Part shown: piece after piece, positions 39,001-45,000 of the stretch
How positions within the stretch are numbered: the first letter of the stretch is position 1
Layout: each line of letters begins with the position of its first letter
NCBI GenBank assembly: GCA_963702025.1
Contig: OY969699.1
Location: 832,001-896,000 of the forward strand
Length of the DNA: 64,000 nt
From: an uncultured bacterium
Lineage (GTDB): Bacteria > Babelota > Babeliae > Babelales > Vermiphilaceae
Reading direction: 5' to 3'
Made by a program: the position numbers

Positions 39001-42000
39001 GGTTATCGAGTTTCTTGATGCTCATTGGCAAACCAATAAGCAGGACAAGAATCTTTCAGTAATGAAAAAGCTCGATCAAGCTCTGGGCAACCCCTCTCAA
39101 AAAACAACTACCGTGCTTGTTGCCGGTACAAATGGTAAAAGTCTTACCATTAACTTTACTGCGCAATTATTGCGGGAAGAAGGTCTAAAAGTAGGTTCTT
39201 TCTATGCTCCTCATATCCTCACCTACAACGAGCGCCTTTCAATTAACAATGAAACTATTGCCAACAAAACCTTTACCGAAATCGGTAATGATGTCATCAA
39301 TACGGCTGAATCCTTAGGAATCACTCCAAATTCCTTTGAAGTTCTCACCATGATGGCACTTATCTATTTTAAAAATAATAATGTCGATATCGCATTGCTT
39401 GAAGTAAGCGAAGGCGGCACCAGTAACGCAACAAATATTTGTAACCCAAAAATCGTTGCAATTACTCGTGTGATCACTCCTGATGAAGCAGCAATAAAAG
39501 AAGCGATCGTTGATATTTTAGGCATTGTAAAAGCAAATACCTATGTTGTTTCAGCCGATCAAAGCAAATTAAATCTTCAAGTAATGCAAGAATTGGTTAA
39601 AGAAAAAGGCGGTATTTGGTCAATGCCAATCCGTAAACTTTCTGCGTTACCCTATCCCTTTGAACAATTACATGGACGCTGCGCAGCGCTCGCTGAACGT
39701 ATATCCCATACGTTTGTGAATGGCTTTACCAATAGTGATGCAGTAGTTGCCAACACATTACTCAGCAAACAAAAAGGTCCTCGCGGCAGGCCAACTCTCC
39801 ATGAAGTAAAACGTCGCGCTGAAAATCCTAAGAAAACAGTTGAACAATTCTGGAAAGAAACCACCAATTCACTCCCTGCTCGTTTCCAACTTCTTGATAA
39901 AGAAAAACCGAGCGTGCTCCTTGATAACGCAAGCAATCTGGATGCATTTAAGAACCTCTTATTGGGTATCCGCTTGCTCCATTACCAAAAACCTCTCAAA
40001 GGCATAACTTTAGTACTTGGCTGCAACAATCAAGAACTCGATCTTTCAGAGTTCCTGAAATTGCTCCGTTACTTCTTTAAAAAGACATCGGGTCAAGTTA
40101 TCGTGTGCCCTGTTTCAGAAATTCCGGGTCAAAATGAGGGATCTTCTTGGGATGTTGAACAAGCAACCAATGATATTAAAAGCATGAAAATAAAAGCACG
40201 TTCAGCAAAGAGCTTTAAAGAAGCTTTTGAAGCGGCACAAAAAACGGTCGATGAAAGAAATGGCCTGGTTATTGTGACCGGTTCATCCGCTATTGTTTCT
40301 GATTATTGGCATTTTAAGGGTATTAAAAAACTCTAACAACGTAAAACCCGTTCGCCTCGATAGAGCCCTCGAAGAGGGCGAGTGGAGAGGTCTCCATTCG
40401 TGCTTCGCACTCCATCGACCCGAACGGACTAGAACTGCAAACTATGACAATAACAACGATAGTGTTATCGCTCATCGCCGGCACTCTTGTCGGATATATT
40501 TATGGACTCCTCTTCTTGCAAACAAGACGAGGGGTCCCCTCACTTTTAAGCCATATTTTTTTTAGTTTCCTTAGATTTGCGCTGCTTTTGTGCGTTGGCG
40601 GCTACTTATTATTACTGCCTTCCATTCATCCCATAATCCTGGTACTCTCATTCTTGACAACGTTTTGGACGACAGTTCTCATGAATAAGGTACCGTTCAA
40701 TGAAAGACATAGAACTTCTTGGTGGTAAACAATGGCAGCCACTGCGGCAGTTTGGCATTTCCCATCCTTTTTTTGCAATAGATAAATCCACTGTTATTAA
40801 TACCTGGATCACCCTCGGTGCATTATTCATCTTAATTATTCTTGCTCGATTTTTCTTACGCCGCCGACTCAGCACCGGCCGCTACATCGTGCTCAGCTAT
40901 GTTCGTTCATTTATTGATCTGGTTTCTCAATCATTGGGCTATTTTTCGTATAACCATTCTGTTTTTGTAGTTGCACTGTTTACATTCATTATTCTGTGCA
41001 ATTGCATTGCGATCCTGCCATGGGTAGAAGAGCCAACCAAAGAATTGAACACCACCTTTGCATTAGGTTTGATAGCCTTTTTTTATATTCAAATATACGC
41101 AATCAAAGCCCATGGTTTTTTTGGGTATCTTAAAGAATATTTTACTCCCTTTTTCTTCATGTTCCCGCTTCACGTTATAGGCAAAATATCAACTATTATT
41201 TCTATGTCATTCCGCTTATTCGGTAATATTTTTGGAAGCGCTACCATTATGCATATCTATCAAGCATTATTAGCCGGCTCACCATGGTTTCAAATCTTTG
41301 GTCTTCTGAGCGGTTTGAATATACTGATGGTAAGTTTTTTTATTATCTTTGAGGGGTGCCTCCAAGCATTTGTATTCACTATGCTAACGGTTACCTACCT
41401 GGCAATTGCCTTAGCTCATGATGATCAGATCGGAGAAATGACATGATCATACAAACTATGAATTACCTGGTCTCCACCCTCATTATTACTATAAGCGCCA
41501 TCGGAGTTGGTATTAGCCAAGGATTAACCAACCGAGCAGCTTTTAAAGCAATTGACATGCAGCCGCAATCCCGGGATGCGGTTACTAAAATTTCATTGCT
41601 CTGCTCCGCACTTATCGAGACGGCAGCAATTTTATGCGTTTTTGTTGCTGTGTTACTGTTTCTAGATACTACAACACCACTCGATGGTTCTTACAGCGAC
41701 ATAGCAAAAATTGGGATTATTTTTGCACTGGCATCCACGGGATTCACCGTAAGCTTTTTTTCATCATGGCCCGCACAAGAAGCCTGCTTGGCAACGGCCC
41801 GCCAACCGTTTATTGCACCATGGATCTTTAATCTCACTCTCATCATGCTTTCAGTAATTCAAACACCTCTTATTCTTGCCTTTATTGTTGCTTTGGGCAT
41901 TAGATCACAAGCAGCAACGGCAATAACTCTTGCTGACGGGCTACGGCTCATTGGCGCCGGGTTTGCCATAGGAATTGGTTCCATTGGCCCAACAATTGGA

Positions 42001-45000
42001 TTGGCTCATTTTGCCCGAACATCCTTGCAAAGCATCGCCAGCAATCGTAATGCCGCGGGCCGCATATTGCCATTTACCTTTATCTCGCAAGCAATTATTG
42101 AATCGCCTATTATTTTTGCTATGGTAACCGCTCTTATCCTGTTGTTTTACCCCATAACACTGTTAACCGGCACCGTAGGGTTGCCTCTTTTAGCGGCGGG
42201 TATAGCAGCCGGACTTGGTAATTTTGGGCCCGGCATTAGTTCCGGAAGAACTGCAGCAGCCGCGTGCAAACAGATTGGCATTAATCCCAACGCATATTCC
42301 TTGCTGGCAAATACGAGCATTTTTGCCCAAGGAGTGATAGATACCGCGGCAATCTATGTATTACTCATTTCTGTGTTAATCATTTTTTTTACTTAATGCT
42401 AATTCGAGCTAAAAAACTAAAGAACAAATTGAGAAAAACCGCTCGTGGTGAGTGCAGCCGCAGGCTGCGTATCGAACCATAAAAAAATAAATTGAAAAAT
42501 ACATTAATTTTAACGGCCGCATGGATTCGATACACTCGCTTCGCTCGTTACTCACCACGAGCGGCTTAACATAGTTTCTTCTGCTGGAGTATCTTTTTTT
42601 AAATTCTTAGTTCGAGCTCACATTACTTGCTAACTGTTGGCCTAATATATGCAATAGCGGTTTTCATTTTTTCTATTTTTTGCTTGAGAATGATATCTGA
42701 TTGGTCATCTTTTTCTTCCACATAGGTGATCACATCCTCAGAGGTTTTTATAAATTGCCCCACGCTGTCCTTTAAATTTGTCAGATCAATTATTTGTCTC
42801 ATAAAATGGGTATTAGTCAGCAAAATAAGATCTGCCTGAAGATCCTGATAAAGATATGAAGTATTAAGTTGTTCTTCAGATTCTTTCAGCTTTTTTTCGT
42901 AGTCTTTTTTAAGGGATTGCACCATCTCTTCAGATTCTTTCAACTTTTTTTCATAATCTTTTTTAAGGGATTGCACTACCTCTTCGGAGTACAAAATAGG
43001 CATTTTTAGTGACCATTCTTCTTTTTTAAGCAACTCCATGGGGTAAAAATAGATCGAAAAGCTGAGAAATGAAGACAAAAATAAGGTACAATTTCTTTTC
43101 ATTTTTCTCCTGGCCAATTTTTACGATTTAGAGTATAGTAGGGAAAGAGCTCATAAGAAAATAAAAATCTCACGATTCTCCAATCTTCAACGTATAGATG
43201 CAATACCCAACATTTTTATACAGCTCTTTATAGTTGTACCTCATAAACATTTTTCTTATAAAGTACGTATCAATGAAAGAACAAAAAATATCGCTTTCGA
43301 CCGCTATCTTGCTCAATATGAATATAATGATCGGATCAGGAGTTCTCATCGGACCTGGTGCGTCAGCTGCCATTTCAGGCAATGCCAGTTTTTTAGCATG
43401 GCCGTTAGTGGCACTGTTGTTCTTACCCATTGTGCTTTGTACTATAGAATTAAGTAAACTTTTTCCGGGAGCCGGAGGCTTTTACCTCTATGCCAAAGAG
43501 GGGCTCAATAAAACAGCCGGTTTTGTAAGCGGTTGGCTCTACATTGTGGGTTACACCTTTGCAGCAACCGTTGAAACATTAGCCTTGCGCAACATTGTTC
43601 TCACCACCATAGGGCACAATGTTATTACGAGTAATGCTGTTATTTTTAATGGGCTCCTTATTGCCGCTGTTATCGCGTTTAACCTATTGAGCCTTAAAGT
43701 GGTAGGGAATTTCCTGAATTCCTTAACCATAGTAAAAATTTTACCGCTCTTGATTTTAATCGTGCTTCTGCCGTTTATTTTTAACCCAAGTTTTTGTATA
43801 ACAAGCACAGAACTATCATTGTTGCCGGCCTCATTGGCATTGCCAATTTTCGGCTACTTTGGTTTTGAGGCATGTGTTGGCATAAGTCATTTGATTAAAG
43901 ATAGCGAGAAGAATGCTCCGCGCGCGATTTTAATTGGTTTTTTAGGAACGGGCCTTTTATATATGCTCTTCCATTTTGGACTACTCAACCTTATGGGCGC
44001 TGAAAATCTTGCAAAACTCAATGCACCCGCATTTGCAGATTTTATTAATTTGCCGATTCCGTATCTTAAATCATTGCTCAAGATTCTGATTCCAACGGCA
44101 TCGGTTCTTATTTTTCTTGCCAGCTTGATTGCTATGATCAATTCAAATGCAATTCTTTTACAATCAATGGCGCAAGAGAAACTCCTTAAAGGATGCTCAT
44201 TTTTAACTTGGACCAATGCCTTACATCGCCCATGGGCAGCATTGGTTTTACAAGGAATTTTAGTCTTTTCAATCGCTACACTTATTCCAAGTTTAGCGTT
44301 AGTGGGTGGACTTACTATTTTGAGCGTGTTCTTATCTTTCTTGCTGCCATTTGTTTCATTACTCGTGGTTCAACTGCACAGAAAGAATACTAAAAAAGTT
44401 GTTCTCGCGATTATCGGGCTCATTATGGCCATTTTATTCAGCATCTACAGTTGGTATATTTTGAGTAATAACCCTGACTTTCATGCCGCCATGATTGAAC
44501 GGTTAACCTACACGGCAGTTTTAATGGCCGCTTTCATCGTTGGAATGCTTCTTTTTAATAGAAAAGATAAATAATTCACAGCGAATAGCTAGTTATTAAA
44601 CATGGTTCGACAAGCTCAGGACGAACGGAGCGTGGAGAATCCGTTCGTGGTGAGCTTGTCGAACCATGTTCATCAGCCTTGCAATTTATGAATAACTTAT
44701 TTTATGGTGAAACAAATCTAACAATACCAAAATTTAAGGAGAACTATGAATATAAAATATATGCGCCTGATTGCATTTTTGGCTTTCTACTCTCTCCAAT
44801 TACCGGCACAAACAATAATCGGTATAATCAACGATAAACAGATAACAGAAGAGCAAAAAGCCCAAGAAATTCAAAAGCTGATTAAAAATGGAACAAAAGT
44901 TGATCAAATAAGTGACCAAATTTTACACCCTTCTGCGCTCATGCTTGCGGCTAATTTAGGATATGCCAAAATAGTAAAGACGCTACTCGATAATAATGCT

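Follow-up and report, generated by a model that had tools for sequence, protein, structure and literature searches.

A four-hairpin F-type c subunit encoded beside atpB in Babelota and its possible place in a hybrid c-ring

The textbook rotor of an F-type enzyme is a ring of identical single-hairpin subunits, the exception being the two-hairpin c1 of acetogens. According to the accessible text of PMC9171764, the ring of Acetobacterium woodii, the one solved hybrid, consists of one such fused subunit and nine single c subunits in a fixed ratio of 1:9, and AtpI acts as an assembly factor in the A. woodii-type operon (PMC7911925). Fused c subunits of the A/V type often lose ion sites (PMC2359735). 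For the ATP synthase of Babelota a role as a pump has been proposed previously (PMC4776705 and PMC6561590, in the parts accessible). Here we describe a whole phylum of protist parasites with a four-hairpin subunit of four non-equivalent repeats, termed c4, next to a single-hairpin subunit, termed c1. One key review aside, no description of c4 was found in the literature searched.

The c4 gene and its partners

The window, i.e. the whole stretch of 64,000 nucleotides that was analysed, contains c4 in the following neighbourhood:

38915..40336, plus strand: folC-like gene (TIGR01499 above cut-off), an upstream neighbour kept in relatives and lying outside the enzyme
40444..40728, plus strand: membrane protein of the AtpI/AtpR kind, 94 aa, overlapping atpB and kept upstream of it in relatives
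40700..41446, plus strand: atpB, subunit a, 248 aa (PF00119, E 1.2e-34; TIGR01131 above cut-off)
41443..42396, plus strand: c4, F-type c subunit of four hairpins, 317 aa (open reading frame, Pfam, AlphaFold2 model)

The start of c4 overlaps the end of atpB by 4 nt. PF00137 (ATP-synt_C) matches three stretches of c4 with 80.2 bits against a cut-off of 24, and hairpin 2 can be aligned to the c family by profile comparison. The AlphaFold2 model calculated from 47 sequences is all-helical (pLDDT 93.8, pTM 0.91) with eight long helices in four hairpins, some of the helices being split into two DSSP segments. An outer-helix membrane carboxylate, which a subunit c should carry in every hairpin, is present in hairpins 1, 3 and 4 (E59, E220, D300) and replaced by Q140 in hairpin 2. 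The single-hairpin c1 (84 aa) is the first gene of a c-b'-b-delta-alpha cluster about 790 kb from c4; beta-epsilon and gamma lie at further loci, so that the ATP synthase genes are spread over four loci. The initial annotation had described a 317-residue four-hairpin c with these four residues and eight modelled helices beside the only atpB, and a normal single-hairpin c in a separate cluster; reading frame, Pfam stretches, residues, model and genome search agree with it in all these points.

The c4 gene is real: about 250 genomes carry it as one open, collinear frame, which rules out an artefact or a fusion by misassembly. As no repeat occurs at hairpin spacing, a recent tandem duplication at the DNA level was rejected as its origin. 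An F-type c profile scores 109 bits on c4, V-type K models reach at most 42 bits, and no A/V catalytic genes were found in the genome; c4 was therefore rejected as a subunit K of the A/V type. The F-type partner set is complete, with a, delta, alpha and beta above cut-off and gamma and epsilon recognized by Pfam; the profile matches of b and b' are weak (E 0.002 and 0.03), yet both genes stand in the expected positions. These results support c4 as a subunit of an F-type c-ring which, in this genome, has more hairpins than ion sites.

One atpB match was found in this genome, and atpB is single in 189 of 191 genomes that are more than 90% complete. Its R172 in the motif SFRLFGN, which we take to be the essential arginine, belongs to an R-L-F/Y-G-N motif found in 58 out of 58 a proteins. 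The three PF00006 matches of the genome are alpha, beta and Rho; with a single atpB and Rho as the third match, a second ATP synthase serving c4 was ruled out. The overlap of 4 nt between atpB and c4 recurs in 24 of 56 loci, and the spacing lies within −4 to +3 nt in 38 of 56; this gene overlap suggests that a and c4 may be made in equal amounts. A scan for promoters and terminators remained at chance level.

The frame at 40444..40728, which the initial annotation had overlooked, itself matches neither PF03899 nor AtpR. Among its orthologues PF03899 (ATP-synt_I) is found in 10 of 31 (best E 1.3e-4) and AtpR in 2 of 31 (E ≤0.1), an Atlas lead (0.85) points to an AtpR/ATP-synt_I cluster, and the AtpI-like profile matches the gene preceding atpB in 13 of 80 Desulfobacterota loci. 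We regard this frame as a probable candidate for a c-ring assembly factor.

With regard to the energy context, the genome contains three ATP/ADP-translocase frames, no COX1 match, and an epsilon that lacks the C-terminal part (epsilon frames of 80-112 aa occur in 23 of 25 genomes, and none was found in the other 2), which makes it probable that the enzyme works as an ATP-driven pump. The membrane PPase carries the motif GNTTAA, which we assume to mark the K+-dependent type, a type that presumably covers both Na+ and H+ pumps.

Ion sites in Babelota and in Desulfobacterota

The presence of c4 in 259 of 261 Babelota genomes had been noted before, and near-universality as well as the separate single-hairpin c are upheld; the long match is limited to 253 genomes, and the other six have a weak best match (E 3e-12 to 4e-7). 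In the sole genome of these six that is more than 90% complete c4 is cut by the contig end, the other five being 53-78% complete. Two or more c matches occur in 249 of the 259 matching genomes. Five genomes showed c4 alone: one has c1 by profile, three are also without alpha, and one has alpha at the contig start. A true loss of c4 or c1 was thus rejected for the cases checked, the five genomes with c4 alone and the weak-match genome of more than 90% completeness, as these cases are assembly gaps.

To describe the residues we use the following division of c4:

41446..41664, plus strand: hairpin 1, residues 2-74, with Q26 and E59 (codon 41617-41619)
41689..41913, plus strand: hairpin 2, residues 83-157, with loop R120-Q121-P122 (41800-41808) and, at the acid position, Q140 (41860-41862)
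41929..42147, plus strand: hairpin 3, residues 163-235, with E220 (42100-42102) followed by S/T-P-x-x-F
42169..42387, plus strand: hairpin 4, residues 243-315, with D300 (42340-42342) and Y305

The residue survey comprised 130 genomes from all 21 Babelota families, with 126 complete c4 proteins among them. The acid is E or D in 128 of 128 covered genomes in hairpin 1, present in 125 of 129 in hairpin 3 and in 126 of 128 in hairpin 4, i.e. the buried acids at 59, 220 and 300 are kept in 97-100% of covered genomes. Sequence identity drops to about 25% from one family to another. The Gln32 position of hairpin 1 is Q or E in 96 of 130 genomes, and the acid face of this hairpin is predicted to contact the preceding ring subunit. 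Conservation is also high for the tyrosine of hairpin 4 (122 of 130) and the R-Q-P loop of hairpin 2 (R 125, Q 120 and P 129 of 130). Internal hairpins carry Pro and Phe at ion-ligand positions, and a full Na+ ligand set was found at internal c4 sites in none of the 130 genomes.

The pattern E-Q-E-D/E had been regarded as invariant. This is true for the best 120 homologues (E 120; Q 120; E 118 and D 2; D 91 and E 29), a set restricted to relatives of at least 44% identity, but the survey of 21 families rules it out for Q140 across the phylum, hairpin 2 reading Q in 79, E in 46, M in 4 and G in 1 of the 130 genomes. If the genomes are divided by phylogeny, the difference becomes sharp: clade A, to which the genome studied here belongs, has Q 79 and M 4 (83 genomes), and clade B, which comprises 8 of the 21 families and is grouped in both the c4 and the subunit-a trees, has E 46 and G 1 (47 genomes). 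The dead site in hairpin 2 is the mark of one branch of the phylum only. All four acids are retained in 42 of the 126 complete proteins, as in most of clade B, and just two in 3; a few lineages have lost a second site (E-Q-G-E, E-G-Q-E, D-E-S-G). In a quick tree the outgroup places the root between the two clades, a position that fits gain as well as loss of E or Q.

Outside the phylum, c4 belongs to a larger family of Desulfobacterota with four to six hairpins, on which no papers were found in the literature searched. Its members read E-Q-Q-Q with three dead sites in 76 of 80 loci and lie directly upstream of a single c in 75 of 80. Babelota and Desulfobacterota profiles align over 315 columns with probability 100; of the four hairpins, 1, 2 and 4 have their highest score with the hairpin in the same position, hairpin 3 fails to pick its counterpart, and in the subunit-a tree Babelota are not sister to the c4-linked a. 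The Babelota c1 profile scores 80 bits against N-type c and 88 bits against c4-linked c1. As the Babelota alignment offers no conserved stretch, relatives outside the phylum were surveyed with the Desulfobacterota alignment, which biases the result towards this group; at least hundreds of matches occur in sulfate-reducer-type genomes, among them relatives with other site counts, and F-type subunits of 4, 5, 6, 7 and 13 hairpins are among the matches listed. With three dead sites in the nearest relatives outside the phylum, Babelota represent the site-rich form.

These counts bear on the idea that, as in V-ATPases, the fusion serves to reduce the ratio of ion sites to hairpins and is an adaptation to a pump driven by host ATP; three copies of c4, for example, would give 9 sites on 12 hairpins and 3.0 instead of 4.0 ions per ATP. 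Consistent with this are the absence of an acid in hairpin 2 from all 83 clade A genomes, the lineages that drop a second site, the pump role already in print, and the statement in the accessible text of PMC9171764 that fewer ions per ATP permit a steeper gradient. We nevertheless consider it unlikely. Clade B keeps the fusion with the hairpin 2 acid in 46 of 47 genomes, so that lower gearing does not explain the fusion; the three dead sites of sulfate reducers show that site loss is not tied to parasitism; the c1 Glu is kept in 23 of 23 aligned sequences, and hairpin 4 tracks c1 (see below). A single dead site in a hybrid ring would cost about 9% of the ions per ATP (10/11, a ring of 11 hairpins being assumed), not the halving known from V-ATPases, and a V-type c does not block ATP synthesis either (PMC9171764). 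From the initial proposal of a low-gear ring for ATP-driven pumping we thus retain the pump role and the surplus of hairpins over sites in this genome, and find no support for low gear throughout the phylum or for gear as the reason for the fusion.

A putative hybrid ring of c4 and c1

A hint towards contact between both subunits arises from the faces of their helices. The outer helix of c4 hairpin 4 is c1-like on its Ser/Tyr face in 26 genomes (phase 158° compared to 150° predicted, p 0.0004; p 0.008 if the ligand positions are excluded), where the angles presume an ideal helix and related genomes are non-independent samples. In the 10 genomes of clade A alone p is 0.06 (0.29 without ligand positions), the inner-helix face gives no signal, and the test in Desulfobacterota without ligand positions is not significant. 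The outward face of hairpin 4 is also closer to the c1 of its own genome than to that of others (z 4.4 when the ligand positions are left out; p 0.002-0.007 for 14 genomes, each from a different family); the other seven faces of c4 reach z ≤2.0 in the full set, and the outward face of hairpin 1 follows c1 no better than internal controls. A complex model of c4 with four c1 gave a weak score of 0.32 compared to 0.00 for the best control, with at least 87% of contacts agreeing between runs and partner pLDDT of at least 76. Of 157 solved pairs 116 reach the mark applied, and of 215 mismatched pairs 2 do so; only 18 of the 157, but both mismatches, reach it with a score of ≤0.60. One must keep in mind that c-rings have already been solved and that the pass may stem from likeness. 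From sequence and model we infer that c4 and c1 probably co-assemble in one ring.

We therefore consider it fairly probable that one c4 and several c1 form a hybrid ring like that of Acetobacterium which acts as an ATP-driven pump; ring make-up, copy number, ring size, direction, ion, ion/ATP ratio and the role of the loop are likewise inferred. The Babelota genes would be a split version of the operon atpI-a-c4-c1-b'-b, which Desulfobacterota retain in one piece. Overlapping genes might supply c4 together with subunit a and the AtpI-like protein, and the other cluster many copies of c1; c4, probably one per ring, would form an arc of four hairpins which several c1 close, and is a candidate nucleus of ring assembly. 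F1 without the C-terminal brake of epsilon could hydrolyse imported host ATP and turn the ring past the arginine of subunit a, thereby pumping ions out. The ion in this genome would most likely be H+, since the second polar ligand is missing from the c1 sequence Q...E-T-L-x-x-Y; the c1 motif Q...ETLAIY deviates from the Na+ motif Q...E[STQ][STQ]xxY, which is complete in 11 of 30 Babelota c1, nine of them in clade B. For clade A the dead site of hairpin 2 would mean one ion less in each turn, and for most of clade B there would be no loss. We propose that c4 may be retained as a fixed asymmetric segment and not mainly as a gear, and that the R-Q-P loop, conserved in c4 alone, is a candidate seat for the foot of gamma/epsilon.

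Two alternative rings, c4-only and c1-only, could instead share one a/b/F1 set in different life stages or ionic conditions (H+ versus Na+). Both genes lie in separate clusters in the genomes examined, the full Na+ motif occurs in c1 and not at internal c4 sites, and Q/E of hairpin 1 and S/T...Y of hairpin 4 could complete each other in a c4 homo-ring. Still, both genes are adjacent in one operon in relatives, where an E-Q-Q-Q homo-ring would by arithmetic move 1 ion per ATP for 12 hairpins, and c1 is tracked by the outward face of hairpin 4 alone, not by the faces expected to follow it via a shared subunit a; we judge two rings to be quite unlikely. That c4 acts outside the turning ring, as an assembly template or spacer together with subunit a and the AtpI-like protein encoded alongside it, would be in agreement with Pro/Phe at internal ligand positions and the low identity between families, but appears improbable: the conserved buried acids are hard to explain without ion transport, and hairpin 4 keeps the tyrosine that stabilises the Glu of the next subunit (PMC2359735). 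The least probable reading in our estimate is a ring of variable make-up (two c4 and few c1, or mixtures) whose gear is tuned by the c4:c1 expression ratio. Both ends of c4 fit c1 as well as another c4, and separate clusters allow separate control; the tight overlap of a and c4 and the fixed ratio of the solved hybrid speak against it.

Within the favored reading of a hybrid ring, a more speculative and rather doubtful extension is that c4 descends from an E-Q-Q-Q spacer which regained carboxylates where Na+ ligands had been lost (Thr to Pro, Tyr to Phe), that an Na+ arc of c1 and an H+ arc of c4 form a mixed-ion rotor, and that the hairpin series represents fixed ring segments. If this is true, the rotor would charge both gradients per turn in members with Na+-type c1, and subunits with 4, 5, 6, 7 and 13 hairpins would line up as a natural series of ring segments, each fixed by its gene. 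Natural pairs offer the same scaffold with 1, 2, 3 or 4 ion sites. They could be used to check the effect of a dead site on ion/ATP ratio and synthesis threshold, an open question in the accessible text of PMC9171764, as well as the crossing of neutral positions by the rotor and fixed gamma/epsilon docking. An asymmetric ring would also provide an internal register mark for cryo-EM of rotary states.

Comparison with known rotors

The gene order of N-ATPases is beta-epsilon-Q-R-a-c-b-alpha-gamma. The enzyme described here resembles them in c (TIGR03322, E 4.7e-23, below cut-off) and in the small upstream gene with its AtpR leads, and differs in gene order and in having b, b' and delta as separate subunits; its alpha and beta are recognized by the standard models but stay below the N-type cut-offs, for which reason membership was rejected. 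N-type alpha and beta and no separate delta are given for N-ATPases in the accessible text of a preprint on rotary ATPase evolution.

Multi-hairpin c/K subunits of the A/V type (Enterococcus hirae NtpK, eukaryotic V-ATPase c, the Methanocaldococcus triplicate and the 13-hairpin c of Methanopyrus) share the covalent fusion of hairpins with c4. Their best fold match to c4 is at E 7e-3, c4 scores far higher with F-type profiles than with V-type K, and its partners are those of an F-type enzyme (a, b, delta, alpha, beta, gamma and epsilon).

The multi-hairpin c of Desulfobacterota (4, 5 or 6 hairpins, for example in Desulfosarcina widdelii), named ATP synthase F0 subunit C in databases, is of the same length class as c4 with a collinear profile. 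Common to both are the inner-helix Pro, the R-Q-P loop of hairpin 2, internal hairpins with x-T-P-x-I-F, and a paired single c with a K-x-P loop. Desulfobacterota differ by E-Q-Q-Q beside a full Na+-type c1 (ESTGIY, 74 loci) and by an additional ordinary c gene in 5 out of 5 genomes checked.

The top match of c4 in fold and sequence is the fused c1 of A. woodii (4bem_J; fold E 2.6e-5, rmsd 1.8; sequence E 1.5e-24). Like c4, this subunit of Acetobacterium woodii and Clostridium aceticum (AtpE1; PDB 4BEM chain J; ring of c1 and nine c2/3) is an F-type fused c beside a single c, and in both cases fused and single c accompany one a/F1 set. In both, hairpin 1 carries E and hairpin 2 carries Q, and in the alignment Phe replaces Tyr before the dead site and T-x-x-x-Y is kept in the last hairpin. 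In contrast, c4 has four hairpins instead of two, three or four acids instead of one site, and no internal full Na+ set; its genes are distributed over four loci with c1 far away, not united in one operon after atpI-atpB, and its host is a parasite that imports ATP, whereas that of the two-hairpin subunit is an acetogen.

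Gene, fold and spread of c4 in Babelota

The fused subunit, c4, is the last of three overlapping genes:

40444-40728, + strand: 94-aa membrane ORF, overlaps atpB
40700-41446, + strand: atpB, subunit a, the middle gene of the three
41443-42396, + strand: c4, 317-aa ORF with its start within the atpB stop

Three stretches of c4 match Pfam ATP-synt_C (80.2 bits), and the protein scores 109 bits with F-type c models vs 42 bits with V-type K models. The acid positions of its four repeats hold E59, Q140, E220 and D300. An AlphaFold2 model from 47 sequences (pLDDT 93.8, pTM 0.91) has eight long helices arranged as four hairpins, and the top solved match in both fold and sequence is the fused two-hairpin c1 of Acetobacterium woodii (4bem_J). 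The gene is real and conserved. The assignment to the phylum follows the labels carried by homologues, Dependentiae or Babeliales. An imperfect inverted repeat (42421-42582, 33-nt arms, 79%) lies 3' of c4, and a G+C-rich stretch at about 40375-40435, before the atpI-like gene, looks similar; both are possibly small repeated elements.

The initial annotation had matches in 259 of 261 genomes. Six of these matches are weak, which leaves 253 genomes with a long one; at least two matches occur in 249. In the only weak-match genome above 90% completeness c4 is cut by a contig end. Five genomes appeared to have c4 alone: a profile recovers the single-hairpin subunit, c1, in one, alpha is missing as well from three, and in the last alpha lies where a contig begins. 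Among those checked, these cases yield no true loss of c4 or c1. In two assemblies (locus L058 of genome G008, L014 of G189) a stop or frameshift interrupts c4, likely a sequencing error.

The residue counts first reported for the acid positions recur in the 120 nearest homologues, all at least 44% identical. The claim that E-Q-E-D/E is invariant across the phylum fails in a wider sample of 130 genomes from all 21 families (30 best hits, 100 spread over families), where the patterns were EQED 58, EEEE 38, EQEE 15, EMED 4 and EEED 3, with eight rarer or incomplete ones totalling 12; being family-spread, these shares are not phylum frequencies. The same two clades, with support of 96/92 in both cases, appear in a c4 tree (75 proteins, quick mode) and an independent subunit-a tree (58 proteins). 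At the hairpin 2 position, clade A (13 families, including this genome) carries Q (79) or M (4). Clade B spans 8 families and 70 of the 261 genomes, and E stands there in 46 of the 47 examined. The fusion thus persists whether or not one of its sites is dead. Natural low-site variants with more acids lost (E-Q-G-E, E-G-Q-E, D-E-S-G, E-E-Q-E, E-E-E-Q) were noted among loci L045 (G042), L053 (G107), L066 (G079), L158 and L165.

Relatives outside the phylum and the origin of the ion sites

An Atlas search lead pointed to c subunits of 314 and 323 aa from Thermodesulfobacteriota, and a profile search returned additional multi-hairpin proteins. With one of the multi-hairpin proteins as query 2410 hits were obtained, the best 120 of which are 322-490 aa long and mostly carry E and then Q in later hairpins. 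A genome scan gave at least 523 relatives among 600 stretches. Of the relatives listed, 80 were kept for locus analysis; nearly all are titled Desulfobacterales, Desulfobacteraceae or Deltaproteobacteria, Desulfosarcina widdelii among these. In the kept loci E-Q-Q-Q was called 76 times, a single c directly follows the multi-hairpin gene in 75, the linked single c reads ESTGIY in 74, and a search for b matched in just 2. In four loci read, a small membrane gene is followed in order by atpI, a, c4, c1, putative b' and putative b. At the level of gene order, the Babelota clusters are what would result from cutting this order between c4 and c1. Five Desulfobacterota genomes with c4 (L259-L265) also have an ordinary a-c pair (ESLCIY), one of them an N-type c too; the printed c4 operons stop after b'-b, with flanks devoid of F1 genes.

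Profiles of Babelota c4 and the outside family align over 315 columns. Both have, in hairpin 2, an inner-helix Pro, R-Q-P in the loop and T-P-x-I-F. Matched one by one with the hairpins of the outside family, Babelota hairpins 1, 2 and 4 each score highest with the counterpart at the same position, unlike hairpin 3. Babelota c1 scores highest with the linked c1 (88 bits), then with the one N-type c compared (80 bits) and with five ordinary c (60-63 bits). A common origin of the two multi-hairpin families is likely on these sequence comparisons; the subunit-a tree of 58 proteins does not settle it.

Other long F-type-like c proteins were seen. P0265 (524 aa, labelled Gracilibacteria) has seven hairpins and P0152 (968 aa) thirteen, with Glu in every one. 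P0152 has 9% Trp, in Gly positions, which points to translation with an unsuitable code of a lineage that uses TGA for Gly; its thirteen hairpins could make up a complete one-chain rotor like that of Methanopyrus. P0208 (1139 aa), a c/K subunit with 15 all-Glu hairpins labelled Promethearchaeota (cluster members Hodarchaeota, Thorarchaeota), is possibly a one-chain rotor larger than Methanopyrus' 13 hairpins. P0259 (328 aa), an F-type c of four hairpins, reads E-E-E-Q.

In solved rings one hairpin supplies the Glu and Gln of a Na+ site and an adjacent hairpin the Ser/Thr and Tyr; in E. hirae K the latter is the preceding one (PMC2359735). On this reading, the A. woodii c1 has no Tyr ahead of its dead hairpin and retains one in its last, and the E-Q-Q-Q proteins are alike. 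Babelota c4 carries the same signature, with Tyr in hairpin 4 only (122 of 130 genomes), Phe or Leu in its place in hairpins 1-3, and Pro as the second-ligand residue of hairpins 2 and 3. The acids are kept despite the lost ligands (position 220 in 125 of 129, position 300 in 126 of 128). Under the Na+ rule in section 2.3 of bioRxiv 10.64898/2026.10.01.756066, internal c4 sites pass in none of the 130 genomes; the full motif is present in the single c of 11 of 30. The c1 of this genome reads Q...ETLAIY, which falls short of it, and we infer H+ coupling here from these residues; that section regards Na+ transport as possible if just this ligand is absent.

The ligand pattern suggests an E-Q-Q-Q-like ancestor and a later regain of the internal acids. 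These may instead have been retained, as the root of the c4 tree (quick mode) falls between clades A and B and all-Glu multi-hairpin relatives exist, such as P0248 (434 aa, F-type, five hairpins all E, internal ESPAIY).

Predicted position of c4 in the ring

A c4 that forms an arc in a c1 ring would need a Ser/Tyr face on hairpin 4 that fits c1 just as c1's own same face does. The angle of this face, 150 degrees, was set in advance on the basis of the ligand positions. In the 26 of 31 genomes with both subunits complete, likeness to c1 (hairpin 4 minus hairpin 1) peaked at 158 degrees (p 0.0004; without ligand positions p 0.008). Clade B carries a strong signal; clade A by itself and the inner helix give none that is significant. 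With genomes shuffled within clades, the hairpin 4 face resembled the c1 of the same genome more (z 5.5; with ligand positions left out, 4.4), also with one genome per family (three draws, p 0.002-0.007). The other seven faces gave z of at most 2.0 in the full set, the opposite face of hairpin 4 showed no excess likeness to its own c1, and the c1 signal expected for hairpin 1 was no larger than controls. A ring of three c4, which would give 3.0 ions per ATP vs 4.0, does not fit this co-variation, as one c4 with several c1 does.

When c4 was modelled together with four c1, the complex scored 0.32 vs 0.00 for the best control (contact agreement 87%, partner pLDDT 76), where passes at 0.60 or below comprise only 18 of 157 solved complexes and both passing mismatches of 215. 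The model lends weak support to a c4-c1 contact and may pass through likeness to solved c-rings. The overlap of a and c4 (-4 nt in 24 of 56 loci) would fit one c4 per subunit a. Loops of c-rings seat gamma and epsilon; R-Q-P is conserved in c4 loop 2 only (125/120/129 of 130), and c1 loops are mostly K-x-P-E.

Direction, gear and known rotors

The genome is 95% complete on one contig. Its one c gene besides c4 (84 aa) comes first in c-b'-b-delta-alpha, and beta-epsilon and gamma lie at two further separate places. Alpha, beta, delta and a exceed standard F-type cut-offs, alpha and beta stay below N-type cut-offs, and b and b' match weakly. A third PF00006 match proved to be Rho. Alpha (L010:3652-5148, - strand) has the P-loop GNRNAGKT, yet passes TIGR00962; the usual F1 alpha P-loop is GDRQTGKT. 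Upstream of the c1 cluster, many Babelota (L073-L102) have a gene for about 240 aa; its EGNIGAGKST is a deoxynucleoside-kinase motif.

AtpB is single here and in 189 of 191 genomes above 90% completeness (two matches in one, none in one). Epsilon has 85 aa here and was found in 23 of 25 genomes, every frame spanning 80-112 aa. The C-terminal epsilon helix blocks hydrolysis (bioRxiv 10.64898/2026.10.01.756066); judged by frame length, Babelota epsilon is predicted to be too short for it. This genome has three ATP/ADP-translocase frames and a membrane PPase, and a search for COX1 gave no match. Running the ATP synthase in reverse has been proposed for this phylum (PMC4776705, PMC6561590), and the passages on it there do not mention the fused c.

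Most likely, F1 would hydrolyse imported ATP and turn a ring in which one c4 is joined by several c1, thereby exporting ions. Assuming 11 hairpins, a clade A ring would carry 10 ions per turn (3.3 per ATP vs 3.7) and most of clade B 11, so that the gear change in a one-c4 ring is small. The enzymes of A. woodii and E. callanderi make ATP at about 90 mV (PMC9171764), so site loss alone does not make a pump. With E in 46/47 sampled clade B genomes, co-variation fitting one c4 per ring and so small a change, the phylum-wide low-gear ring proposed initially is not supported.

In the literature searched no four-hairpin F-type c was found described; the preprint supplements may include these proteins, and the hybrid-rotor survey may mention larger forms. 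The preprint, bioRxiv 10.64898/2026.10.01.756066, gave no hit for Babel, Dependentiae or TM6; it regards duplications as commoner among A-ATPases than among F-ATPases and refers to "several multi-hairpin structures", none named. Babelota c4 is apparently undescribed so far. The 2015 hybrid-rotor survey by Brandt & Muller is said to list some dozen species that pair an F-type c with a V-type c. We read c4 as a variant of the A. woodii hybrid rotor.
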